Below are positions 28,219-40,309 of a DNA stretch of 64,000 bases, one piece after another (within the stretch, counting starts at the first letter, position 1; every line of letters begins with the position of its first letter). The notes under the pieces were generated by a model, which saw only the letters and a program-made list of their open reading frames with translations, was not told the DNA's origin and ran no database searches. Both the position numbers and the translations under genes were made by a program. The DNA is from Candidatus Hydrogenedentota bacterium (GTDB lineage: Bacteria > Hydrogenedentota > Hydrogenedentia > Hydrogenedentales > Hydrogenedentaceae): contig JAOAHN010000122.1 in the NCBI GenBank assembly GCA_026415215.1, positions 11,954-75,953 of the forward strand. Direction: 5' to 3'.

Positions 28219-30158
28219 GACTTGTCAAAATAGGAACAGCAAACCTCTCTGTAAAAGTAGGTGATTTTAATAGGAATGTGAGATATATAAAAGAAGTTAT
28301 CGCCGAGGCTGAGAAGCAGGGAGTTAATCTTCTCGTTTTACCTGAACTCGCCATAAGTGGATATAGTCTTGAAGATAGAGTGTATTGGGATGAAATTGTG
28401 GAAATGAGTTGGAAGCACTTAGTTTCAATAGCTGAAGAAACTACTAAGAGTGGGATATGTGTTTTCTTAGGATTGCCTGTAAGAAAAGGGGTGCATCTAT
28501 ACAATGCATCTGCATTAATAGGGGGAGGAAAAATATGGGGCTTGATACCTAAACAATATATCCCATCTTATCATATATTCTATGAAACGAGGTATTGGAG
28601 TTCGTGGGATAGAGGAGTTGATGAGATTAATGGTTTTCCTATTGGTGATTTAATTTTTGACCTACCCTATGGTAGAGTCTCTGCGGAAATTTGTGAAGAT
28701 ATATGGGTACCTACATCCCCTTCGATAGAGAGAGTTTTATCGGGTGCAGAAATTATCTGTAATCTGAGCGCTTCACCCTTCAACCCATTGAAAAATTTGA
28801 CGAGAAGGGTTTTAGTCCTAAGTAGTGCAGTAAAGCTTAAAACTGTATATGTGTATTCTAATTTACTCGGATACGATGGTAGTAGGTTGGTTTTCGATGG
28901 GGGAGGTATAATAGCTACACCGGAGGGGAAATGTGTAGAATCTCCACTCTTGTCTTATGAACCTTGGACACTCAGCACGATGATTGTAGATTTGGATGAG
29001 GTAACAAGGAATAGGAAAGAAAATTCTAGTTGGAAATTGAATTCAATAAACCGTTTGAAGAGTGAGGGAGTTTTTGTGGTATCGGTAGATATTAAACCTA
29101 ATAGATTGCCTTCTCTGAAGGAGTGGGTAGATGGGCTTCCGAGAAGTTTTTATGTATCTGAGAATAACTTATCAATGCCATCAGATAGTAGAATTTCGGG
29201 AAATTACTTTGAGCAGTTATTTCACGCTCTTGCATTGGGTCTGAGAGACTATTACGAAAAAGTAGGGGTTTTCGAAAAGTTTCTTGTAGCCCTTTCAGGG
29301 GGAAGAGATAGTGCTTTGACACTTCTCCTTGCTGTTGAAGCAGCTAAGCATATTGAAGGAGGAAAATATATAGACAGATATGCAGAAAAAATCGAAAGCA
29401 TATATCTTCCTCACAAAGATTATAGCAGTAGTGAGACTCTTACATGTGCTAAATCTCTTGCGGAGGAACTGGGAGTTCCATTTAAAGTAGTATCTGTCCA
29501 TGAGGAAGCTGAACTGGCGTTCAAAAAATCTGCTGAAATAATGGGAGACGAGGATAAAGTTAAGCCTATTACGCGACAGAATTTACAGGCTCGTATAAGA
29601 GGAGCGATGATGTTAAATTGGGCAAATAATGTGAATGGATTACTTTTAGTTACATCTAATTTGAGTGAATCTGCAGTAGGATACACAACTACAGGAGGAG
29701 ATAATGAAGGAGGTTTTTCCCCTATTGCGAATGTGCCTAAAACAGTAGTCTCAGCTTTATTAGAATACCTACATAAAACGAGAGGTATTAAATCCCTCGA
29801 GAAAATTTTAAGCATTCCTCCTACCGCTGAACTTGCACCAAATCAAACAGACGAGGAGGACTTGATGCCTTATCGTGTTCTTGATGATTTAATTTACCTA
29901 TATGCAGAAATGCGATTGAGTCTGGTTGATTGTTGGAAGGTTATATGCTATCGATTTCCGGAATTTGACAAGGAACAACTAAGGAAATGGACTGAAAAGT
30001 TCGCTCGTCAATTAGTGGGGAACCAATGGAAGAGAGACCAACACCCAGTCTCTCTTAAGGTTTTAGAGCCTGACTTTGATCCCAAAACAGGTTTTAGGTT
30101 TCCGATTACCCAGAGTATTGAAGAGGAGATTGTGAAGCTCCGAGAATCTTCTATTTAA
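28215..30158 (+). CDS. nadE: Glutamine-dependent NAD+ synthetase
   Basis: Start re-set to ATG 28215, which overlaps the pncB stop as ATGA. The N-terminal CN-hydrolase domain has 'LLVLPELAISGY'. The C-terminal synthetase has the PP-loop 'SGGRDSALTLLLA'. Confidence 0.85.
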   Translation: MRLVKIGTANLSVKVGDFNRNVRYIKEVIAEAEKQGVNLLVLPELAISGYSLEDRVYWDEIVEMSWKHLVSIAEETTKSGICVFLGLPVRKGVHLYNASALIGGGKIWGLIPKQYIPSYHIFYETRYWSSWDRGVDEINGFPIGDLIFDLPYGRVSAEICEDIWVPTSPSIERVLSGAEIICNLSASPFNPLKNLTRRVLVLSSAVKLKTVYVYSNLLGYDGSRLVFDGGGIIATPEGKCVESPLLSYEPWTLSTMIVDLDEVTRNRKENSSWKLNSINRLKSEGVFVVSVDIKPNRLPSLKEWVDGLPRSFYVSENNLSMPSDSRISGNYFEQLFHALALGLRDYYEKVGVFEKFLVALSGGRDSALTLLLAVEAAKHIEGGKYIDRYAEKIESIYLPHKDYSSSETLTCAKSLAEELGVPFKVVSVHEEAELAFKKSAEIMGDEDKVKPITRQNLQARIRGAMMLNWANNVNGLLLVTSNLSESAVGYTTTGGDNEGGFSPIANVPKTVVSALLEYLHKTRGIKSLEKILSIPPTAELAPNQTDEEDLMPYRVLDDLIYLYAEMRLSLVDCWKVICYRFPEFDKEQLRKWTEKFARQLVGNQWKRDQHPVSLKVLEPDFDPKTGFRFPITQSIEEEIVKLRESSI

Positions 30159-32134
30159 TTAGTTGTTTGTTCAACAACTTTGCAATTACCTCTTATAAAT
30201 ATAGGGTATGGTTTTTTAAGGGTTACGAGACGCTTTTTTCCGCTCTTTATATGCCCTACTTCTTCACCTACGAGATTTGTAATGGTTACATCATCTATAG
30301 CCTTGATGGTTATAGCTGAATCTTTTTTGAATGCCCATATTACTGTTGTGTGTTGGTGCTTTATCCCAATTAAATTATCTGAACTGAACTCCAGTGTAAC
30401 TACATTTTTATCTCTTATTTGAGTGCATATATTGGCACAAGCGAGATAGGCAGGTTTTAATGAGAAATCTGATCTTACTATTCCAAAATTTTCCTCAAAA
30501 TAGAATGGGTCGTTTCCGTCATTTCTAAAGTCATACCAGCTAATATTCTCTACTACCCCAGAAGCCAATGCTGAGAGATAACATCTTGCAATTAGTAATG
30601 CTTGTTCTCTTTCTGTTACACCCCCTGTCCATAGATGGGTACTCCACCCCATTTCAGTTATCCATATTGGGCGTCCACCTATTAGATCGTGCGTCCTTTT
30701 TAATTCATTTATGAATTTTTCTTCGTTTAGTTCTTTCCTATATGGATGAACAGTGAGTATATCAAAGGGTGTGTTTGCTTCTAAGCATTTCTTAATAAAT
30801 TGAAAATCGATACCCGAAGTAGATATAGCAAGAACTTTTGCCTTGGGATCTATTTCTTTTATTACCTGATAACATTTTTTGACAAGTTCAGGGTAGAGTT
30901 CTTTTGGACCTTGCCAGAAGAATATGTTAGGTTCATTGTAAACTTCCCAATATTTTATTCTATCTTTGAAATGTTGGACAGTTCTTCTTGTGTAATTTAC
31001 GAAATCTTCTATTCCCTTCATCGTGTATGGTTCTGTCCAGGGTGCCCAGTAGCAAAGGAGCGCGTAAGTGGAAATTCCATACTTTAGTCCTGTGTTAACT
31101 ATGTTATCGTAGTAGTCGAAGGTAAATTTTCCGGGTGATGGTTCGATAATTGACCAAGAGAAATCCTCTCGTGTCCACTTTATTCCTGCCTTACTTCCCA
31201 TTTCTGCAGATTTTTCCCTTGCTATTTGGTTATTTCCATATCTGTAGAAATACATTCCCATACCCCAAGGAGAAGCCTCGTTGACCAACTTATCTACCTC
31301 AAGTGAGGGTTCTTTACAGATAGTAGAGTAATTCTTGAAAATATTTCCATCGCTCCTTTCAAATATCCATTCCGCTTCTAAGAATTTTTTCTCCTCTGGG
31401 AATCGATGAGTTAGTTGGAACTGCATTTTTTCCCCTCCTGGGCAGAGTAAAATATTAGAAAATACGCTTTCATGTAAGATGTTTTCATCCCAGTCCTTGA
31501 TTTTGACTCGGAGATTCCCTGAAACCTCTCTTGGGAGTAAGTTGCGAATCTCACAAGAGCAAAGTATTTTTTCCCCCTCGGATTTAGATATGTTTGAGAT
31601 GATTATACATTCCTGAGGAGGAGGAAGAATGGTTTCACAGATAAATTTTAGAAATCTCAATCTAAGTATCTCAGAGGGACACGAACCTTTCTTGATATAA
31701 AATCTTAAAAACCTTAGAGGAGTTCTAACTTTACCGTCGTTTTCGCCACTAAAATATTCCCATCCCTCTGGGGGTGCATTTATCTCTATAGTTTGCAATC
31801 CATATCCTGTAACTCTTATTGTTTTTTTGAAAAATTGGAAGTGAGAACCTAATAGTATTTCCAACTCCCAGCCCATTGAGCTTGTCCAAAGCTGGATTAT
31901 GAATTTTTGAGGTGTCCCGAATAAAGAATATGATGGATGGGATACTTCTGCTTGGATGTGCTTTGAGAAATCTATTTCCCAGTTAGCATCAATGAAAGTA
32001 ATACCGGATAGCTGTAAACTATGATTTTCTTCTGTAAATATAGGGATTTCATAAACTATGGACTGTTCCGCTTCGGTTTTTACAGAGTATGCCCAAAAAC
32101 AAAAGTAGATGATAGTAAATGTAAAGATTCTCAT
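30155..32134 (-). CDS. Secreted clan GH-A glycoside hydrolase (GH39/GH5-like) with an N-terminal beta-sandwich domain
   Basis: Signal peptide. Acid/base motif 'KYWEVYNEPN' and nucleophile 'PIWITEMGW'. The stop overlaps the convergent nadE stop. Confidence 0.6.
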   Translation of the reverse strand: MRIFTFTIIYFCFWAYSVKTEAEQSIVYEIPIFTEENHSLQLSGITFIDANWEIDFSKHIQAEVSHPSYSLFGTPQKFIIQLWTSSMGWELEILLGSHFQFFKKTIRVTGYGLQTIEINAPPEGWEYFSGENDGKVRTPLRFLRFYIKKGSCPSEILRLRFLKFICETILPPPQECIIISNISKSEGEKILCSCEIRNLLPREVSGNLRVKIKDWDENILHESVFSNILLCPGGEKMQFQLTHRFPEEKKFLEAEWIFERSDGNIFKNYSTICKEPSLEVDKLVNEASPWGMGMYFYRYGNNQIAREKSAEMGSKAGIKWTREDFSWSIIEPSPGKFTFDYYDNIVNTGLKYGISTYALLCYWAPWTEPYTMKGIEDFVNYTRRTVQHFKDRIKYWEVYNEPNIFFWQGPKELYPELVKKCYQVIKEIDPKAKVLAISTSGIDFQFIKKCLEANTPFDILTVHPYRKELNEEKFINELKRTHDLIGGRPIWITEMGWSTHLWTGGVTEREQALLIARCYLSALASGVVENISWYDFRNDGNDPFYFEENFGIVRSDFSLKPAYLACANICTQIRDKNVVTLEFSSDNLIGIKHQHTTVIWAFKKDSAITIKAIDDVTITNLVGEEVGHIKSGKKRLVTLKKPYPIFIRGNCKVVEQTTN

Positions 32135-32256
32135 ATCTTATTCCTTAAGATTTTGTAATGAGTTGCTTGACTCTTGTAAGTTTAAATAGGTAAAATATCT
32201 TCCATATTTTTTATTAATGTAACTTAGAACTTCAAACTGTAGAAGGAACAGGTGGT

Positions 32257-32370
32257 ATGATTTTAGCAGATATAATCAATATAGTAGTAAGTGTTTTGTT
32301 GAAGTTTTTGGCGGAATGGTTAACTCAGCTCTTATTGGGATTATTCGGAGTCGGAACTACTCAAGAGTAG
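32257..32370 (+). CDS. Small hydrophobic/amphipathic peptide (37 aa), not in the ORF track
   Basis: ATG 32257 with AGGTGG 4 nt upstream. Product MILADIINIVVSVLLKFLAEWLTQLLLGLFGVGTTQE. Paralogous to the next mini-ORF. Confidence 0.4.
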   Translation: MILADIINIVVSVLLKFLAEWLTQLLLGLFGVGTTQE

Positions 32371-32408
32371 AAAATTTTTAGAAGTAATTATATAAGAAGG
32401 GTTAGTCT

Positions 32409-32531
32409 ATGGATTTCAACGCAATTTTGAAAGAAATAATAGAAAAAGTGGTTGAATATTTGGTTGGTCTGATAACAAAGATAGTTTCGGATTTCTTTAC
32501 TGCACTCACTGGGAAAGAACCAGTAGATTAG
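32409..32531 (+). CDS. Small amphipathic peptide (40 aa), not in the ORF track
   Basis: ATG 32409 with AAGAAGGG upstream. Product MDFNAILKEIIEKVVEYLVGLITKIVSDFFTALTGKEPVD. Hydrophobic residues follow an i/i+3/i+4 periodicity, as in an amphipathic helix. It shares the pattern IL..II..VV..L...(n)...L.G with the preceding peptide. Confidence 0.4.
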   Translation: MDFNAILKEIIEKVVEYLVGLITKIVSDFFTALTGKEPVD

Positions 32532-32612
32532 TTACTGGTTATGTTTTATTAGTTGTAACAGGATGGTTATTTTTTTGTCTTACTTTTTTATAACTTTGTT
32601 GGAATAAAATTT

Positions 32613-33710
32613 TTGATTACCAGACGATTATTTCTGAGTTTTGCAGTTTTAGGAGGAGGGGTATGGTTTCTCAACCCTCGAAGTGGAAACTCGCTTGAGG
32701 AATCCAAAGTATCAAGAGATGTTAATAAGTTTAAGTTTTGGGGGAAACTGTGCGGTTTCAATCTACAGAACTTTTTTATGGTGCATTCCAAGCGATGTGT
32801 AGAAGAGTCGGAGATTATACTCCTGAGGGAATTAGGTTTTAATTTTGTCCGTTTTCCAATGGACTATAGATGTTGGATAAAAGGAGATAACATCTACGAT
32901 GTAAACGAAACGGTTCTCAAAGAAATAGATTCTGCAATAGATATATGTATAAAGCATGGTGTTCATGTTTGCCTAAATTTTCATAGAGCCCCAGGATGGA
33001 CTGTTGCTGAACCTCCAGAAACTCTAAACTTATGGAAAGAGGAGGAAGCCTTAAAAGCTAGCTGTTTTCATTGGAAACTTTTTGCCGAAAGGTATAGGGA
33101 TGTTTCATATAGGTATTTGAGTTATAATCTGTTTAATGAACCTCCTGCAATAAGTGAGGATGCTCACAGACGAGTTATAGGAAAGGTTATAGAAGAGATA
33201 AGAAAGATAGATAGTGAAAAGTACATTCTTTGCGATGGGAGGAGATGGGGGGCCGTTCCTCCTTTGGAACTCGCTGATTTCGATATTGTCGCATCTTTTC
33301 ACATGTATCATCCATTTACAATCACCCACTATAAGGCTGAATGGGCCGGCAAATGGGAGGGAGTTCCAGTTCCAACATATCCTTTGGAAGAAAAAGGAGT
33401 AGTGTGGAACAGGAATACTATCGAGAGTAATTATATATCGCATTGGCATAAGTTAGAGCAAAAGGGGGTTCCTATTTTCGTAGGGGAATTCGGCGCATAT
33501 AATAAGACCCCTCACGATGTTGTCATAAGGTGGATGAAGGATTGTTTGGATATTTTCCAAAAACATGGGTGGGGTTGGGCTCTTTGGAATTTTAAAGGAC
33601 CTTTTGGCCCTCTCGACTCAGGAAGAGTAGATGTGGTCTATGAAAAGAGGGGAGAGGTACTAATTGATAAAGAGATGCTAAGACTTTTGACAAGGTATTT
33701 ATCACAGTAA
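32613..33710 (+). CDS. Glycoside hydrolase family 5 (cellulase/mannanase-type)
   Basis: TTG start. GH5 motifs 'LGFNFVRFPM', 'HGVHVCLNFHRAPGW', acid/base 'YNLFNEPP', nucleophile 'IFVGEFGAYN'. N-terminal signal/TM. Confidence 0.8.
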   Translation: MITRRLFLSFAVLGGGVWFLNPRSGNSLEESKVSRDVNKFKFWGKLCGFNLQNFFMVHSKRCVEESEIILLRELGFNFVRFPMDYRCWIKGDNIYDVNETVLKEIDSAIDICIKHGVHVCLNFHRAPGWTVAEPPETLNLWKEEEALKASCFHWKLFAERYRDVSYRYLSYNLFNEPPAISEDAHRRVIGKVIEEIRKIDSEKYILCDGRRWGAVPPLELADFDIVASFHMYHPFTITHYKAEWAGKWEGVPVPTYPLEEKGVVWNRNTIESNYISHWHKLEQKGVPIFVGEFGAYNKTPHDVVIRWMKDCLDIFQKHGWGWALWNFKGPFGPLDSGRVDVVYEKRGEVLIDKEMLRLLTRYLSQ

Positions 33711-33763: not shown

Positions 33764-36238
33764 ATGAAAAGGTGTTTTTTCTTATTTTTTACCTCAATAG
33801 CTCTTTCTACTATGAGTTTCTCCGAACATTGGGGAAATGCAGAGGAATCATTAGATTTACCTCTTACACTTATTCAAGAGGGGAAACAACTTTCTTCGAA
33901 AGTTGTCAAAGCAAGCTGTAAGTTAAAAGGTTTAGCTTTTTATGATTACGGTGATATATTAGAATTTGTTTTCCCCACCTCTAAGGGGCTTAGACAAGAT
34001 TTTCTTGTTTTGGGGAGAATAAGTTCTTACGGCGAAGACTATGTCAAATTGAGAGTAAGGTTAAGATACGACTTTCAGATTCTCCATGTATCTGAAAAAG
34101 AAGTAGTTATAAGACATGTTCTTAGTGATAAGAAAATCGTTTATGCAGGGCTTAGAGTTTTTGATAGCTATGGTAATGTTTTGCCTTCTTTTTTTGTGGG
34201 GGAAAAGGATAATAGTGCCTCCTTATTGGTAAAGGATCTCAATGCCAAGTATCCAATTTACATTGATCCTACTTATTTAGATGAAGACTGGGAAAGCATA
34301 AGTCCTAATTTTACAAATGGAGTTATTAATTGTGTTGATTGTACTGATAGTGGGGTAATTTATGCAGGTGGAGCTTTTACTTTGATAAATAATGTTTCTG
34401 CTAATAGAATTGCAAAGTACTATAATTCTCAATGGCAACCCATGGGACAAGGGTTTAATAACACAGTTTATGCAGTTTTAGTATTAAATAATGTGCAAGT
34501 GTGTGCAGGAGGAGCTTTTACTAATTCTGGTGGTAATTCACGAAACAGAATTTCTTTATGGAACGGTTATGCATGGACAGCTATGGACACAGGATTTAAT
34601 GAGAAAGTATATGCATTAGCTAAAAGTGTAGACGGAAAGATATTTGCAGGGGGATCTTTTACAAGGTCTGGAAATGGTGCTAAGAATTTAAACCACATAG
34701 CTTTTTGGAATGGTTCATATTGGGATGAACCTTCTTTGGGAGTAGGAGGCCAATCCGATTATGTCCTAGCGCTTTCTGCAGATAGTATAGGAAATATATA
34801 TGTAGGCGGTAAATTTCAGTATGCTGGTGGGGTAAGTGCTTCGAACATAGCTCGATGGAATATCAATACATCTACTTGGCATCGGTTATCAAATGGTGTG
34901 AATGGAATTGTAAATGCATTAGCGGTAGATTCTCAGAATAGGCTATATGTAGGAGGTGAGTTTACCTCTGCGGGAGGTAATCCTGCTTATAGAGTCGCGG
35001 TGTGGAATGGAACATCCTGGTCTTCTTTGGGGACAGGTGTAGATGGTGCAGTTTATGCTTTGGAAGTTAGTAATGAGTTCACACTTTTTGTTGGAGGTGG
35101 CTTTAACTACACAGGTGGAGGGATAGGTCCAAATCACCTCGGTTGGTGGCATAGAGGTCAGTGGAATCCAATTACCTCAGGGATTCAAGGCAGTAGTTTT
35201 TCAATCAGGGGATTATCTTTGGACAGTGGTTCAAATTTATATGTTGCAGGTAGTTTCTATGGGGCAGGGGGTATTGAGAGTTATAACATTGCTAAACTAA
35301 GGAAACCTCCTTTATTTGAAATTAGGTATATTTCAGGAGGGGGTGGAATTATTTTAGGACAGCCAGTTCAACAGGTAATGAGGGGAGATAATGGAACTGA
35401 GGTAGTTGCCCAACCCCTTGTTGGTTTTCAATTCGACAGATGGTCAGATGGTTTAACTTCCCCTTCGAGAATAGATACAAACATAACCTCTAATGTACAG
35501 TTAACCGCATATTTTCTGCCAGTTGGGGAAGGTGTTAATGAAGGGAGTGAAGATGGCACACCTGAAGGGCTTGGAGAGGGGGAACCTGATGGTATCGGAG
35601 AGGGTATAGTTGAAGGTGAGGGAATCAGCGAAGGAGTTTACGAGGGCGAAGGTGAAAATGAGGGGATTATAGATGGCGAATTAGAAGGTTCTTTGGATGG
35701 GATTGTCGAGGGTTTGTTTGAAGGCACTGAAGAAGGTCAAATAGAAGGAGTGATAGAAGGGTCTGAAGAGGGATCGGGGGGAATTGAGGGTGAGGGTGGA
35801 GAAGGAGTACCGAATGAGGGAGAGTTAGAGGGGAGTATAGAGGGGGAAAATCACCTTGTAGTTTGGATTGATGCTCCAAGTATATTAGACAAAAGAGTCG
35901 GTGAAAGCCTATCGTTATTAGCGAGAACTTCAGGTGGAATAGGAGACATATCTTTTCAGTGGTATTATAAAGATACCAATAATGTCGTATATAGGTTAGA
36001 TAATCAAATTCAACCCCTTTTATATATTGAAAACCTCGAGTTAGAGGACACCGGTTACTATTGGTGTGAAGTTTCGGATACTTTTTCGGTAGTCCCCAGT
36101 AATGAAATATATGTGAGGGTAAGTGTAGGCTTAGAAACAATTACTGTTTTCTCTGTTATAATTTTAGCATCCGCGATATTGTATTTATTTGCCTTGGTTA
36201 TTGATAACCACTCTAAAAGAGGAGAACATCATGTATGA
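33764..36238 (+). CDS. Large secreted surface protein: tandem ~57-aa propeller-type repeats, an acidic EG-rich spacer, an Ig-like domain and a C-terminal TM anchor
   Basis: Signal peptide. At least 7 repeats of the pattern 'vYaGGxFtxxGGxxxxxIAxWNGxxW' (nt ~34330-35290). An Ig-like module with 'EDTGYYWCEV'. C-terminal hydrophobic 'ITVFSVIILASAILYLFALVI' followed by 'DNHSKRGEHHV'. Confidence 0.6.
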   Translation: MKRCFFLFFTSIALSTMSFSEHWGNAEESLDLPLTLIQEGKQLSSKVVKASCKLKGLAFYDYGDILEFVFPTSKGLRQDFLVLGRISSYGEDYVKLRVRLRYDFQILHVSEKEVVIRHVLSDKKIVYAGLRVFDSYGNVLPSFFVGEKDNSASLLVKDLNAKYPIYIDPTYLDEDWESISPNFTNGVINCVDCTDSGVIYAGGAFTLINNVSANRIAKYYNSQWQPMGQGFNNTVYAVLVLNNVQVCAGGAFTNSGGNSRNRISLWNGYAWTAMDTGFNEKVYALAKSVDGKIFAGGSFTRSGNGAKNLNHIAFWNGSYWDEPSLGVGGQSDYVLALSADSIGNIYVGGKFQYAGGVSASNIARWNINTSTWHRLSNGVNGIVNALAVDSQNRLYVGGEFTSAGGNPAYRVAVWNGTSWSSLGTGVDGAVYALEVSNEFTLFVGGGFNYTGGGIGPNHLGWWHRGQWNPITSGIQGSSFSIRGLSLDSGSNLYVAGSFYGAGGIESYNIAKLRKPPLFEIRYISGGGGIILGQPVQQVMRGDNGTEVVAQPLVGFQFDRWSDGLTSPSRIDTNITSNVQLTAYFLPVGEGVNEGSEDGTPEGLGEGEPDGIGEGIVEGEGISEGVYEGEGENEGIIDGELEGSLDGIVEGLFEGTEEGQIEGVIEGSEEGSGGIEGEGGEGVPNEGELEGSIEGENHLVVWIDAPSILDKRVGESLSLLARTSGGIGDISFQWYYKDTNNVVYRLDNQIQPLLYIENLELEDTGYYWCEVSDTFSVVPSNEIYVRVSVGLETITVFSVIILASAILYLFALVIDNHSKRGEHHV
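35524..35850 (+). repeat. In-frame low-complexity acidic (x-E-G-x)n repeat inside the surface protein
   Basis: About 110 aa of 'GEGVNEGSEDGTPEGLGEGEPDGIGEGIVEGEGISEGVYEGEGENEGIIDGELEGS...'. It is an imperfect codon-level repeat, not a nucleotide-perfect tandem. Confidence 0.7.
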
Positions 36239-38634
36239 GATATATATGTTGTTTTACTCTAATACTCTCCTATATATTATTGATAAATCTAAGGACATTC
36301 TCCGAGAATCTTTCTATAAATGATTTTGAAGCTATACTTATAGAAGACAATCATTTTCCACTCGAGCCTCAAAATACTGCTCTTAAGGTTTTGGTTGAAG
36401 AAATTGAACGGAGAACCGCAGTAAAGATTAAGGTCTCAAATAGGTTAAAAGAAGGAGGAATTATAGTTCTATCAACTTGGCGAAAGATTAAGGAAGTTAC
36501 AAAAGGAAAAAAATATGGAGCTATAAGAGAATTTAAACCGGAGGAACATGGAAGATTTTCCGATGAAGGATACATTCTTTTTGTTGATAAATCCGGTGAC
36601 AGGTTGCCAATTCTCTGGATAATCGGCTATGACCATCGCGGTATTCTCTTTGGGGTTGGCAAATTGTTACGGATAGCAGAGTTTTGCGATGGTAAAGTAA
36701 GCATTCCTCATAAATTGTGTCTCGTCTCTTCACCTATTTCGCCCATTAGAGGACATCAGTTGGGTTATCGAGCAAGAGCAAATTCGTATGACGCTTGGGA
36801 TGTCCCGCAATATGAAAAATATATTAGAGAACTTGCATTTTTTGGAAATAATAGTGTTGAGAATATCCCTTTCCAAGATGAACAGTTCTCTCCTCATATG
36901 AAAGTTCCTCGCAGGGAAATGAATAAGGCGATAAGCCAAATATGTAAGATTTATGGTTTGGATTATTGGGTCTGGGTTCCTGCAGATTTCGATTTAAGGG
37001 ATAGCGAGAAACGAGAGAATATGTTAAGACTGCACAAGGAACTGTATTCAGATTGTCCGGAAATTACAGGGGTATTTTTCCCGGGAGGAGACCCAGGAGA
37101 TAATCCTCCGGAACTCGTAATACCTTTTTTGGAAGACCTTTCTCGGATTCTCTTGCCTATACATCCCAAAGCCAGTATATGGCTTTCGCTACAAGGTTTT
37201 TCACCCTCTCAGTCTAAGTATGTTTTTGATTATTTGAGAAGAGAGAGACCGAAATGGTTTGGAGGAATATGTGAGGGTCCTTCAAGTCCACCTATTGCAT
37301 ATTTAAGAAAAGAACTTCCAGATGAATATAGATTAAGAATGTATCCTGATATTACTCATAATAAGCTTTGTCAGTATCCTGTTCCATGGTGGGATTTAGC
37401 CTTTGCTCTAACTCATGGGAGAGAAGGAATTAACCCGCGGCCAGTTCAGTATGCTTATATACATAATTGGTTTCAACCATATTGTGATGGATTCATCACA
37501 TATTCTGATGGTATTCACGATGATGTAAATAAAGTTGTCTGGAGTGCTTCAGGGTGGGACCCTTCTCAAAATGTGAGGGAAATTTTATATGAGTATTGTA
37601 ATGTATTTTTCGGCACTGGCATTGCTGAGCTTGCAGTTGAGGGAATCTTAGCTTTGGAGAAAAATTGGCGAGGTCCCGCAATTGATAATGGTTCAATCGA
37701 AGGGACTCTTTTGATTTGGCAAAAGTTGGAAGAGATGGCACCTAAACTTAAGGATAATTGGAGATGGCAATTATGTCTCGTCCGAGCATATTATGATGCG
37801 TATGTGAGGCGTCGATTAGTTTATGAGACAAAACTTGAAGGGGAGGCTTCGGAGATTCTAATTAATGCCAAAGAGTTTGGTTCTGAAAGAGCCATTGATA
37901 TGGCTAATGGGATACTACTTCGTGCTATAACCGAACCCGTAGCTCCAGATTTGAGAAAGAAAATAGAAAAGCTGTTTGATGATTTATTTAAAAGCATTGG
38001 CCTTCAGTCAAGTGTGGAGAAATATGGTGCCAGTGGAGGAGAGAGGGGAGCATCACTTGACTACCTTGATATACCTCTAAATAATAGGTGGTGGTTGGAG
38101 GATGAATTTGTGAAGATTTCTAATCTTCATAGAGAGGAAGAAAAATTAAAGCGGTTGTGTGAACTTGGAAAATGGGAGAAACCTGGATATGGTTCGTTTT
38201 ACGATGATGTAGGAAATACAGCAAAATCTCCCCGGATAAAGAGATGTGAAGCTCCAGTTACCAATCCAGCTGAGGAGGCATGGCCTGAGCCTACTCTTTG
38301 GTGGTTTGAAGAGGGTAAAAGTAGAAAGAGATTATCGTGGCTTTCCTCCCTTGAAGAAGGAGAGGCTTTGTATCAGGGATTAAACCCTGACAAAGCCTAT
38401 AGAGTTAGTTTCACTGGATACGGTATTCCACAAATTTTTGTTGATGGGGAAAAGGTTTCAAAAGAAGACGAGAAAATTTTAGAATTGGGGGAGGTACGGT
38501 CTTATGCCATCCCTCAGGAAGCGGTTGAAGATAGAGAGATAGTTTTGAAATGGAGATTGCACCCTTCAGACTTTAGGAAAAACTGGAGGCAAAGGTCAAG
38601 AATTTGCGAAATATGGCTAATTTGTGAGAACTAA
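36235..38634 (+). CDS. Hypothetical secreted protein (799 aa), possibly glycosidase-like
   Basis: Signal peptide. The ATG overlaps the upstream stop as ATGA, implying translational coupling. No confident family; 'FFPGGDPGD' resembles the GH20-like 'GGDE' region only weakly. Confidence 0.3.
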   Translation: MRYICCFTLILSYILLINLRTFSENLSINDFEAILIEDNHFPLEPQNTALKVLVEEIERRTAVKIKVSNRLKEGGIIVLSTWRKIKEVTKGKKYGAIREFKPEEHGRFSDEGYILFVDKSGDRLPILWIIGYDHRGILFGVGKLLRIAEFCDGKVSIPHKLCLVSSPISPIRGHQLGYRARANSYDAWDVPQYEKYIRELAFFGNNSVENIPFQDEQFSPHMKVPRREMNKAISQICKIYGLDYWVWVPADFDLRDSEKRENMLRLHKELYSDCPEITGVFFPGGDPGDNPPELVIPFLEDLSRILLPIHPKASIWLSLQGFSPSQSKYVFDYLRRERPKWFGGICEGPSSPPIAYLRKELPDEYRLRMYPDITHNKLCQYPVPWWDLAFALTHGREGINPRPVQYAYIHNWFQPYCDGFITYSDGIHDDVNKVVWSASGWDPSQNVREILYEYCNVFFGTGIAELAVEGILALEKNWRGPAIDNGSIEGTLLIWQKLEEMAPKLKDNWRWQLCLVRAYYDAYVRRRLVYETKLEGEASEILINAKEFGSERAIDMANGILLRAITEPVAPDLRKKIEKLFDDLFKSIGLQSSVEKYGASGGERGASLDYLDIPLNNRWWLEDEFVKISNLHREEEKLKRLCELGKWEKPGYGSFYDDVGNTAKSPRIKRCEAPVTNPAEEAWPEPTLWWFEEGKSRKRLSWLSSLEEGEALYQGLNPDKAYRVSFTGYGIPQIFVDGEKVSKEDEKILELGEVRSYAIPQEAVEDREIVLKWRLHPSDFRKNWRQRSRICEIWLICEN

Positions 38635-38692
38635 TTATCTCGTTTTGGTATTATAAAAATGTAGTTAAGCAAGGATGAAGAGGTGTAAGTTT

Positions 38693-38836
38693 ATGTTTGA
38701 TATAAGAGATAATACTTTCGAGAAACAGATTGATTCCGATTACACTCAGGAAATATATATTACTCCTTTTACAATAGTTATGTGGTTGATTGGATTCTTC
38801 ATAATTCTCCTTGCTTCACTTGAGCAAATCTTTTAG
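38693..38836 (+). CDS. Small membrane protein (47 aa), not in the ORF track
   Basis: Product MFDIRDNTFEKQIDSDYTQEIYITPFTIVMWLIGFFIILLASLEQIF, with a C-terminal TM helix. An alternative in-frame ATG lies at 38675. Confidence 0.3.
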   Translation: MFDIRDNTFEKQIDSDYTQEIYITPFTIVMWLIGFFIILLASLEQIF

Positions 38837-38884: not shown

Positions 38885-40309
38885 TTGTATTGTAAACATA
38901 AGTTTTTGTTATGTTTGTTTCTTTTGATTGTAAGTTTTGCTGAGTTTCAATATTTAGTTAAATTGATATTTAACTTTATACATAAGGAGAGAAGTACTTT
39001 GAAGAAAAGATTGTTGTATGTAGATTTCTTTCGCGGATTTTTTATAGTTTATATAATTTGGCTTCACGCCTTTAATGCTGTGGTTTATAACAATGATCCC
39101 CAATCTATCGATAACGCAAATCCGTGGATTTTTGTGATACTCGCTCCACTTGTAATTATGGCTACTTGGGCTCCCATTTTTGTTTTTCTTTCCGGCACAG
39201 CTCATGCCTACTCAATGCATCAGACCTTGCTTAATTATAATAGGATAAGAAGCATCACCCCTGAGCTGAACAAATCGTTATTGGGAGGTTTAGTTAATTC
39301 ATTCTTACTGATATTTTATTCTTTTATTAATATGACATTCTTTCACCATAGAATGCCTTTCAACGGCAGATTTTATGAGACTTTAATTACTGGATACATT
39401 TGGAAGGGAGCTTTTCCTGATTTTTCAATAGATATTCTCTTCTACACAGATGCACTTGGAAACATTGGTATTAGTCTTTTCTTTTTGCATATAACATTGT
39501 ATGCACTTTGGCGTTCAGGGGAATTGTTTGATAGGAGATATACCTTTCGGGTATTGTCCGGAATAGGGTTCACATTGCTATTCATTTCCCCTGTGATCCA
39601 CAATTCACTGGACCCAATTTTTTATCAGTCTATTCAAGACAAAAATTGGGTAGTATCATGGGTCCTAAAGTTTCTTTTAGCACCTTTACCTAATATGGCT
39701 TATGGTTATCTTGGGGCAGTTTTTGGTATAGCACTATCGGAGAGAGTAGAACTCCATAAGATTAAGTGGTATGGATACAGCGTTGGAGGAGTGTTGGTAT
39801 TTATAGCCTGTGCAATTATAAATTCGGAAGGACTTGCTCCTTCAGAGTTTGCTAACTCTCCGTTGCCAATTAAAATCCAAATTCTGGATGCGGGTTTGAT
39901 AGTAATCTTAACCACCTTGTTTATTTCCCTGATGGAATATACAACAGAGGAGAAAAGAAAATGGTGGGCGGAGCACACCATATTTTTTAGAAGAATTAGT
40001 ATGGTGGCTTTGACAATCTTTATTTTGGAAGGACCAGTTGCAGTAACTTTAGGAAGATTGTATCTACTAATAATTGGTTCCCCATCAGAATTTCCTAAAA
40101 ATCCGTTGTACATAATTCCGTTCATTATGCTTGTTCTTTTGTTTTGGTATTTTGTGGCCAAGTTATGGGAAAAAATAGGATTTAAGTATGGTGCAGAGTG
40201 GCTCTCAGTTCAGATAGTGGGTTGGTTTAGGAATAGAAAGTCTTTGAGATTAGACCCTGCTTATGCTCTTTATCATAGGTCAAAGTATGCATCCATAAGA
40301 GAAGAGTGA
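38885..40309 (+). CDS. Multi-pass membrane protein, acyltransferase-3/DUF1624 (HGSNAT-like) candidate
   Basis: More than 10 TM helices. The N-terminal 'KKRLLYVDFFRGFFIVYIIWLH' resembles the R-x-x-x-D-x-FRG opening of membrane acyltransferases and DUF1624. Confidence 0.4.
   Translation: MYCKHKFLLCLFLLIVSFAEFQYLVKLIFNFIHKERSTLKKRLLYVDFFRGFFIVYIIWLHAFNAVVYNNDPQSIDNANPWIFVILAPLVIMATWAPIFVFLSGTAHAYSMHQTLLNYNRIRSITPELNKSLLGGLVNSFLLIFYSFINMTFFHHRMPFNGRFYETLITGYIWKGAFPDFSIDILFYTDALGNIGISLFFLHITLYALWRSGELFDRRYTFRVLSGIGFTLLFISPVIHNSLDPIFYQSIQDKNWVVSWVLKFLLAPLPNMAYGYLGAVFGIALSERVELHKIKWYGYSVGGVLVFIACAIINSEGLAPSEFANSPLPIKIQILDAGLIVILTTLFISLMEYTTEEKRKWWAEHTIFFRRISMVALTIFILEGPVAVTLGRLYLLIIGSPSEFPKNPLYIIPFIMLVLLFWYFVAKLWEKIGFKYGAEWLSVQIVGWFRNRKSLRLDPAYALYHRSKYASIREE

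Follow-up and report, generated by a model that had tools for sequence, protein, structure and literature searches.

The phenol-soluble modulin (PSM) beta peptides are amphipathic helices of 34-45 amino acids that are secreted via the Pmt transporter (PMC7825627). Here we describe a pair of small open reading frames (ORFs), ORF1 and ORF2, of 37 and 40 amino acids, which lie in a 64,000-nucleotide stretch (hereafter "the window") of contig JAOAHN010000122.1 from a Candidatus Hydrogenedentes metagenome-assembled genome, directly before a gene for a GH5 glycoside hydrolase that carries a twin-arginine translocation (Tat) signal. Like the staphylococcal PSM-beta operon (psm-beta1/psm-beta2) and delta-toxin, the pair consists of tandem small genes that have their own Shine-Dalgarno (SD) sequences, lack a signal peptide and encode amphipathic helices of about 40 amino acids. 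It differs from these systems in that it comes from another phylum, is unrelated in sequence, is predicted to form single continuous helices, is linked to the Tat-signal GH5 gene and has no Pmt-type exporter nearby. With regard to the last point, the pmt genes lie apart from the psm loci, and with regard to charge, PSM-beta peptides are near-neutral to anionic.

Other classes of small peptide also bear comparison with this locus. Leaderless two-peptide bacteriocins such as enterocin L50A/L50B likewise comprise two adjacent, similarly sized, leaderless helical peptides encoded in tandem, but they are strongly cationic, mutually paralogous, carried on plasmids or islands and accompanied by transport and immunity genes, whereas the peptides described here are anionic, of unproven paralogy, chromosomal and syntenic, and have no transport or immunity genes as neighbours. 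The Fst family (NF033608) and TisB are hydrophobic helical peptides of about 30-40 amino acids, which ORF1 resembles in size and in its polar or charged stripe; however, ORF1 falls below the family cut-off, has neither a positively charged C-terminal tail nor an evident antisense-RNA partner locus, and is paired with a second conserved peptide in a locus that is vertical and single-copy. The AcrZ, KdpF, CydX and MgtS class of small membrane-protein regulators and subunits shares with the pair single-helix proteins of fewer than 50 amino acids, conservation within a clade and a position beside the genes that are accompanied. In that class the transmembrane segment is canonical and uncharged and the partner is a membrane complex, whereas ORF1 carries D5, K/R16 and E20, ORF2 is amphipathic only and the gene next door encodes a hydrolase that is soluble and exported by Tat. 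Finally, the TnaC, SecM and MifM leader ORFs, which act in a manner dependent on the peptide sequence, are also small upstream ORFs near an RNA hairpin, with amino-acid conservation that is strongest C-terminally, and the present locus departs from them in having two cistrons, conservation over the full length, a variable distance between stop codon and terminator, and no conserved alternative RNA structure.

With moderate confidence, we read the locus as a clade-specific, abundantly translated micro-protein pair of two helices, which are predicted to assemble at the membrane and which share a transcription unit with the Tat-signal GH5 gene. Judged by the searches and comparisons reported below, the pair is a new small-protein family and no recognisable bacteriocin or toxin. 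An uncultured phylum thereby gains a well-supported micro-protein family that had no name before, and the case illustrates that comparative genomics alone can tell real genes of 37-40 codons from chance ORFs in AT-rich intergenic DNA. What sets the pair apart is the anionic character of the peptides, their constant pairing, the polar stripe of period four that they share, and a linkage to GH5 that has persisted through rearrangements on both sides, making the locus a test case for how small helical proteins cooperate with secreted enzymes or take part in their expression. Should the two prove to be an ordinary small membrane protein pair, their value would be limited to an improved annotation of Hydrogenedentes genomes.

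Coding evidence and distribution of ORF1 and ORF2

A preliminary description of this DNA had noted two small tandem ORFs on one strand in a 478-bp gap between two glycoside hydrolase genes, and both are present as described, on the plus strand. ORF1 (32257-32370) begins with ATG and encodes 37 amino acids, MILADIINIVVSVLLKFLAEWLTQLLLGLFGVGTTQE; ORF2 (32409-32531), also with an ATG start, encodes 40 amino acids, MDFNAILKEIIEKVVEYLVGLITKIVSDFFTALTGKEPVD. The gap itself (32135-32612) is AT-rich, at about 30% GC. Both of its flanks are indeed glycoside hydrolase genes, although the upstream one (30155-32134; Pfam Glyco_hydro_cc and related families) lies on the minus strand, which makes the gap a divergent intergenic region, a point that the preliminary description had overlooked, just as it had missed the promoter and terminator architecture and how strictly the pair is tied to the Tat-signal GH5 gene. 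The downstream gene (32613-33710, plus strand) encodes the GH5 enzyme with its twin-arginine signal (MITRRLFLSF...) and matches Pfam Cellulase with E = 1.8e-33. An SD-like sequence of its own had been proposed for each ORF, and this was borne out: the 5' leader of about 55-60 nt (32197-32256, plus strand), as read from the sequence, holds GAAGGAA (32242-32248) and AGGTGG (32250-32255) ahead of ORF1, and the SD-like AAGAAGGG of ORF2 (32394-32401, plus strand) contains GAAGGG (32396-32401) 7 nt before the ORF2 ATG. The two ORFs had also been described as absent from a list of open reading frames. In the public annotation only ORF1 is missing: its exact sequence has no entry in the protein collection for the window genome, whereas ORF2 has one and is annotated in its NCBI record as hypothetical protein N3G21_12090.

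Relatives of the pair were gathered by means of ORF2, using an exhaustive phmmer search, a profile search and a metagenome scan that together yielded about 11 distinct lineages; for ORF1, the distribution given here is that of the loci found through ORF2. The family is narrow, since the phmmer search with ORF2 against 1.84 billion representative proteins returned only a single additional cluster, and in a scan of the genome collection the contig of locus L001 was the sole match. All lineages with the pair belong to the low-GC (33-38%) Candidatus Hydrogenedens clade. The closest relative of ORF2 (88% identity, 40 amino acids) lies on the syntenic L001 contig, and across all relatives ORF2 spans 62-88% identity at 40-41 amino acids, with ORF1 relatives of 35-39 amino acids. 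An ORF1 homologue was found directly upstream in every ORF2 locus (hidden Markov model (HMM) E 1e-18 to 1e-26) except on one end-cut contig, and the order ORF1 then ORF2 is constant. The pair is single-copy and vertically inherited at one syntenic position, and neither the window nor L001 yielded any further paralogues of the peptides.

A check of conservation and of Ka/Ks had been put forward in the preliminary description, and its outcome favours coding: the frames are intact in about 11 lineages, with no frame-breaking indel in either ORF, and differences fall mostly at third codon positions. In the alignment of the window with L001, indels and low identity are seen in the leader, in the spacer between ORF1 and ORF2 and in the 3' flank, and the ORFs are free of indels. 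The spacer varies both in length (14-50 nt in the relatives) and in sequence; in the relatives it carries GGAGG or GGAGGG, and AAAGGAG or GGAGG stands 6-9 nt before both ATGs. Compared with L001, ORF1 of the window differs at 9 first, 3 second and 21 third codon positions, with a proportion of nonsynonymous differences (pN) of 0.14 and of synonymous differences (pS) of 0.80; for ORF2 the corresponding counts are 5, 0 and 26, with pN 0.07 and pS 0.89. The pS values of both ORFs are saturated in this comparison, and the other five frames look neutral or contain stop codons. Taken over the lineages, pS lies at 0.6-0.9 and pN at 0.07-0.25. Over 55 pairwise comparisons, mean identity, pS and pN were 0.64, 0.75 and 0.21 for ORF1, 0.73, 0.59 and 0.15 for ORF2, and 0.66, 0.72 and 0.21 for GH5, meaning that the constraint on ORF1 and ORF2 is at least that on the adjacent GH5 enzyme. 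Third codon positions vary freely over the full length of both ORFs, which indicates that selection preserves the amino-acid sequence rather than an RNA structure or a DNA site within the ORFs. By these comparative measures, ORF1 and ORF2 are real, separately translated genes under strong purifying selection.

As a side observation, the contig that carries L001/L005 (CAZZMK010000116.1) bears the record title "uncultured Nitrospirales bacterium", yet it is collinear with the Hydrogenedentes window, with 58-86% protein identity over seven genes. From this collinearity, the contig looks mis-binned or mislabelled.

Helical character of the peptides and their relation to one another

The peptides had been described from the outset as amphipathic or hydrophobic helices, and the computed properties agree. 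ORF1 is about three-quarters hydrophobic, with a grand average of hydropathy (GRAVY) of 1.36 and a net charge of -2. Its family (alignment A4) keeps A4, I9, V11, V13, W21, L22, L27 and L29-F30-G31 invariant and always has K or R at position 16; a narrow polar stripe is formed by D5, N/S8, S12, K/R16, E20 and Q/E24, and the sequences end in a variable polar tail. ORF2, with a net charge of -3, is a classical amphipathic helix whose 18-residue hydrophobic moment reaches 0.57. The invariant residues of its family (alignment A5) are the N-terminal MDFN, K8, K13, Y17, G20, F29-F30 and the C-terminal LTGKEP, which is followed by VD in nearly all lineages. AlphaFold models each peptide as one continuous helix, which spans residues 3-29 of ORF1 and residues 3-34 of ORF2; the mean predicted local distance difference test (pLDDT) score is 88 in either case. 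Across the families the peptides are anionic, with net charges from 0 to -3 for ORF1 and from 0 to -4 for ORF2. A reading of the sequences found neither a signal peptide nor a double-glycine leader in either peptide.

The preliminary description had called the two peptides paralogous and had pointed to a shared pattern. What they share is a periodicity: family-averaged hydrophobicity has a period of 3.9 residues in ORF1 and 3.75 in ORF2, placing a polar residue at about every fourth position, and the period-4 alternation of hydrophobic and polar residues runs in the same register in both families. Paralogy was not demonstrated. BLASTP of ORF1 against ORF2 gave E = 0.019 with only 18 residues aligned, comparison of the two families with hhalign gave a probability of 6% (pairwise E = 0.006 at offset +4), and reciprocal HMM cross-hits had E = 0.05-4. 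In gapless BLOSUM62 scoring, the highest values fall at offsets 0 and +4, which is expected of any two amphipathic helices of period four and does not establish common ancestry, plausible though such ancestry is. Positions in register also carry opposite charges, with K/R16 of ORF1 facing D/E16 of ORF2 in the alignment and E/Q24 of ORF1 facing K24. In the L006/L016/L017 clade, K24 of ORF2 is replaced by D alongside G24 in ORF1; this is a single evolutionary event that carries no statistical signal, and the correlated change is only a hint of contact between the two peptides.

Family searches placed the peptides in no described group. Pfam searches with 10 ORF1 and 13 ORF2 members at E <= 10 returned only scattered noise from single members, with no match to the Staph_haemolytic, Delta_lysin or PSM-alpha families, and NCBIfam gave no PSM, delta-lysin or bacteriocin match for either family. 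NCBIfam NF033608 (Fst family toxin) produced sub-threshold matches in five of the 10 ORF1 members at E <= 1. The best of these, from the L015 homologue, had E = 4.9e-5 and 23.1 bits against the curated cut-off of 26 bits; the matches span just 14-18 hydrophobic residues, and the window ORF1 gives none. Searches of the peptides against PHROGs found nothing below E = 0.02, profile searches of the PDB produced no match of any meaning, phage and plasmid sequences searched by tblastn held no match, and the literature on Hydrogenedentes small proteins yielded nothing relevant. Resemblance to bacteriocins, PSMs or delta-lysin, which the preliminary description had suggested, therefore does not extend to family membership, given that the peptides are anionic, without a match to any such family in Pfam, NCBIfam or PDB, single-copy and vertical. 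A mode of action as membrane-active peptides or small membrane proteins is nonetheless our best guess.

Two further candidates were considered and set aside. A split TatA-like function came to mind from the LFG at the end of ORF1 and from the Tat substrate next door, but no uncharged transmembrane segment of the TatA type and no P-x-K-L-P motif is present, and GH5 homologues elsewhere use Tat signals without the peptides. A holin-like role was rejected with the peptides too short, PHROGs without a holin match and no lytic enzyme nearby.

Linkage to the GH5 gene and transcription architecture

In all loci, the GH5 gene lies immediately 3' of the pair. This linkage persists in L017 despite different upstream genes, in L020 despite an upstream insertion of four genes and a change in the genes after GH5, and in L010, L014 and L021 despite different genes after GH5. 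The GH5 proteins of all 11 lineages carry an N-terminal RRxF[LI] twin-arginine motif, a type of motif that marks Tat substrates. The solved structures closest to the GH5 enzyme are 1VJZ (an endoglucanase) and 3W0K (an endomannanase/endoglucanase), both of them intracellular enzymes. Homologues of GH5 without the pair come from higher-GC (51-66%) Hydrogenedentes, from Chthonomonadales and from other genomes, and in L022-L029 no divergent version of the peptide pair was found upstream of the more distant GH5 homologues. Since GH5 homologues in higher-GC genomes are without the pair, the pair is, on its observed distribution, an innovation of the low-GC Hydrogenedens clade.

Every GH5 homologue examined, in L001-L029 as well as in the window (32613-32660), starts with a twin-arginine motif, high-GC genomes of other phyla included. 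From these N-termini, the GH5 subfamily appears to be generally Tat-exported.

Upstream of ORF1, a consensus scan located the promoter-like site TTGACT-18-TAAAAT of the micro-protein cassette (32167-32196, plus strand), which is kept at the aligned position in L001 as TTGACT-18-TAAAGT. The main-group lineages have a stronger promoter-like site about 100 nt upstream of ORF1, exemplified by TTGAGA-17-TATAAT in L011 with 11/12 matches. The 5' leader of the window has no significant fold (z = +1.27), and Rfam searches found no family in the intergenic region of the window at the gathering threshold, nor in L010 at E <= 1. Behind ORF2, a terminator-like hairpin of 9 bp, AACCAGTAGATTAGTTACTGGTT, followed by ATGTTTTATT with a T-rich tail, overlaps the ORF2 stop codon (32518-32550, plus strand); the consensus scan placed the hairpin and its tail at 32518-32540. 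Strong terminators consisting of a hairpin and a U-tract were found 17-81 nt after the ORF2 stop in L001, L010, L011, L013, L015, L020 and L021; these seven have folding free energies (dG) of -18 to -23 kcal/mol and are homologous neither to one another nor to the window hairpin. Terminators after ORF2 are well above shuffle expectation. The GH5 start codon follows ORF2 at a distance of 46-96 nt, and consensus scans detected no plus-strand promoter-like site between them. The arrangement is most simply read, we infer, as a single promoter followed by two cistrons that are translated at a high level, with a leaky terminator before the enzyme gene.

Several features of individual lineages were recorded beside this architecture. 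In L021 (3860-4000), the GH5 start codon is immediately preceded by tandem terminators made of two near-identical copies of ATAGCACATAGCGTAAAATTCCGCTATGTGCTATTTT. Nine main-group lineages, namely L006, L010 (about 945-975), L011, L013, L015, L016, L017, L020 and L021 (alignment A7, columns 64-89), have a 5' cassette leader of roughly 100 nt with a conserved hairpin of 9 bp, UAUAACUCC-N7-GGRGUUAUA; the hairpin has two covarying pairs, an anti-SD-like 5' arm and an SD-like 3' arm, and neither the window nor L001 has it. Antisense promoter-like sites of the form TT(T/A)ACA-17-TAAATT occur in the 5' part of ORF2 on the minus strand in L010 (1147-1175), L011 and L015 (10010-10038). They occupy the same position in these three lineages and are made of Asn-Leu and Val-Lys codons, no such site is found inside ORF2 in the window or in L001, and AT-rich codon use probably accounts for them.

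Competing readings and neighbouring genes

In the model that we prefer, the membrane-assembled pair in one transcription unit with GH5, the cassette would run from the promoter through the leader, ORF1 and ORF2, each behind its SD, to the hairpin or terminator. The two helices would associate as a hetero-oligomeric bundle within the cytoplasmic membrane or on its surface, with ORF1 buried or tilted in the bilayer and ORF2 as its interfacial partner, so that the pair would act as small membrane proteins and not as a secreted toxin. Hints of a hetero-oligomer come from obligate co-occurrence, equal helix lengths, hydrophobic doublets that fall in the same register and charges that complement one another at aligned positions. 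The GH5 gene downstream, with its Tat-exported product, would also be transcribed from the promoter of the cassette, and partial read-through of the terminator behind ORF2 would set a ratio of high peptide to low enzyme expression. A shared promoter with a leaky terminator would account for the lasting linkage of the three genes. A closer, functional coupling of the pair to the exported enzyme, either as a minimal membrane device of two helices that anchors, releases or gates it once Tat has transported it or as a sensor in which two upstream ORFs control terminator read-through in a peptide-dependent manner, is a speculative extension that we regard as unlikely; we know of no description of either device as an accessory to a Tat substrate or a carbohydrate-active enzyme.

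A number of observations weigh against the membrane-pair model. The hydrophobic stretch of ORF1 holds the conserved charges D5 and K/R16, and often E20, which means that it is not a canonical transmembrane anchor and that a soluble bundle is possible instead. GH5 homologues at 46-53% identity have the RR motif and are without the upstream pair; as these more distant homologues keep the Tat signal in the absence of the peptides, the enzyme type does not generally need them, and the linkage may go back to nothing more than the use of one promoter and the small intergenic target offered to rearrangement. On the side of transcription, the promoter scans report consensus matches that occur at chance density, with a site count not above shuffle expectation, the window hairpin is weak (dG -8.8 kcal/mol; region z-score -0.8), and the terminators of L006, L016 and L017 are weak as well. 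Lastly, all lineages with the pair come from one clade, which limits the phylogenetic depth behind the conservation.

Among the alternatives, the reading of the ORFs as chance open frames in the AT-rich promoter or 5' untranslated DNA of the GH5 gene, which the preliminary description had itself named as a possible refutation, gains something from the base composition and from dinucleotide shuffles of the gap (n = 5000), 16% of which gave a single plus-strand ATG ORF of at least 37 amino acids. Two non-overlapping ORFs of this kind on the same strand arose in just 0.5% of them, and about 11 lineages keep the frames, their synonymous change being saturated, their nonsynonymous change low and their indels confined to DNA outside the ORFs; frame conservation and low pN leave this reading a very small probability, and on the comparative data it is effectively refuted. 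Secretion of the peptides as leaderless surfactants or toxins, of the PSM-beta type or as a two-peptide bacteriocin, with a transporter encoded elsewhere and possibly acting together with GH5 on the surfaces of prey or substrate, would fit two tandem genes of about 40 codons with their own SDs, no signal peptide and long amphipathic helices, and the strong SDs and the terminator right after the pair would suit an abundant structural peptide. We nevertheless hold it to be improbable, as no PSM, delta-lysin or bacteriocin model of Pfam or NCBIfam was matched even at E <= 1-10 and a net charge of 0 to -4 is unlike that of leaderless bacteriocins. The lack of an adjacent immunity or ABC-export gene, correctly noted in the preliminary description, extends to about 10 kb from the pair, a distance within which no ABC exporter, immunity gene or peptide-modification enzyme was found, and a single-copy, syntenic, vertically inherited locus under purifying selection contrasts with bacteriocin loci, which are typically patchy and fast-evolving.

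Two readings place the function of the ORFs in regulation or in toxicity to the cell itself. As leader peptides or regulatory upstream ORFs, they would control terminator read-through into GH5 by translation of, or arrest at, the ORF2 C-terminus (FFxxLTGKEPVD-stop). The position of the ORFs on the same strand directly 5' of GH5, from which they are separated by a terminator but by no promoter that the scans could detect, speaks for such control, as do the fact that the three genes are never separated, the 5' arm of the window hairpin, which lies within the last four ORF2 codons where a ribosome at the stop codon would block hairpin formation, and the conservation of the 12 C-terminal residues of ORF2, the highest in the peptide. 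We consider this control improbable all the same. Conservation runs over the full length, including MDFN and the amphipathic periodicity, neither of which an arrest motif needs, and there are two cistrons, both with strong SDs. Moreover, the terminators are non-homologous and are placed anywhere between -14 and +81 nt with respect to the stop codon, no conserved antiterminator is present, synonymous sites at the 3' end of ORF2 vary freely, and L021 has two terminators in tandem. That ORF1, alone or with ORF2, is instead a membrane-depolarising peptide like the type I toxins Fst and TisB, under tight translational control, seems to us unlikely. The sub-threshold NF033608 matches in half of the ORF1 members would favour it, as would the small hydrophobic helix with its polar or charged stripe, similar to that of TisB, the main-group leader hairpin with its anti-SD-like 5' arm AACUCC and the antisense promoter-like sites inside ORF2 in L010, L011 and L015. 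Against this, all of the matches stay under 26 bits and cover 14-18 residues, with the window ORF1 unmatched; the GH5 start 46-96 nt after ORF2 leaves no room for a convergent antitoxin RNA; and the antisense sites arise from Asn-Leu/Val-Lys codons and occur in neither the window nor L001. Strong, accessible SDs and a single-copy locus are atypical for toxin-antitoxin systems, as are purifying selection and synteny across GH5 divergence down to about 54% identity, and the second peptide is obligate.

Within about 10 kb, the neighbours of the cassette include genes for an NAD synthase, an NAPRTase, a NUDIX protein, a superoxide dismutase, a prismane protein, a phosphofructokinase, a GH4 enzyme, a beta-propeller/immunoglobulin-like (Ig) protein and conserved proteins of no assigned function. 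At 36235-38634 (plus strand), the window encodes a 799-aa protein that has no sequence match in Pfam, NCBIfam or PDB and that retains 60-73% identity across the clade; in most lineages its gene shares a gene string with the GH5 and beta-propeller/Ig protein genes. A second conserved small ORF, of 47-53 amino acids, is located at 38675-38836 (plus strand) in the window and at 9724-9867 in L001, just 5' of the gene for a 474-aa multi-pass membrane protein (38885-40309). Its C-terminal hydrophobic segment, YITPFTIVMWLIGFFIILLAS(L/I)EQIF, is almost unchanged in L001, and the ORF is probably a further real small membrane protein.

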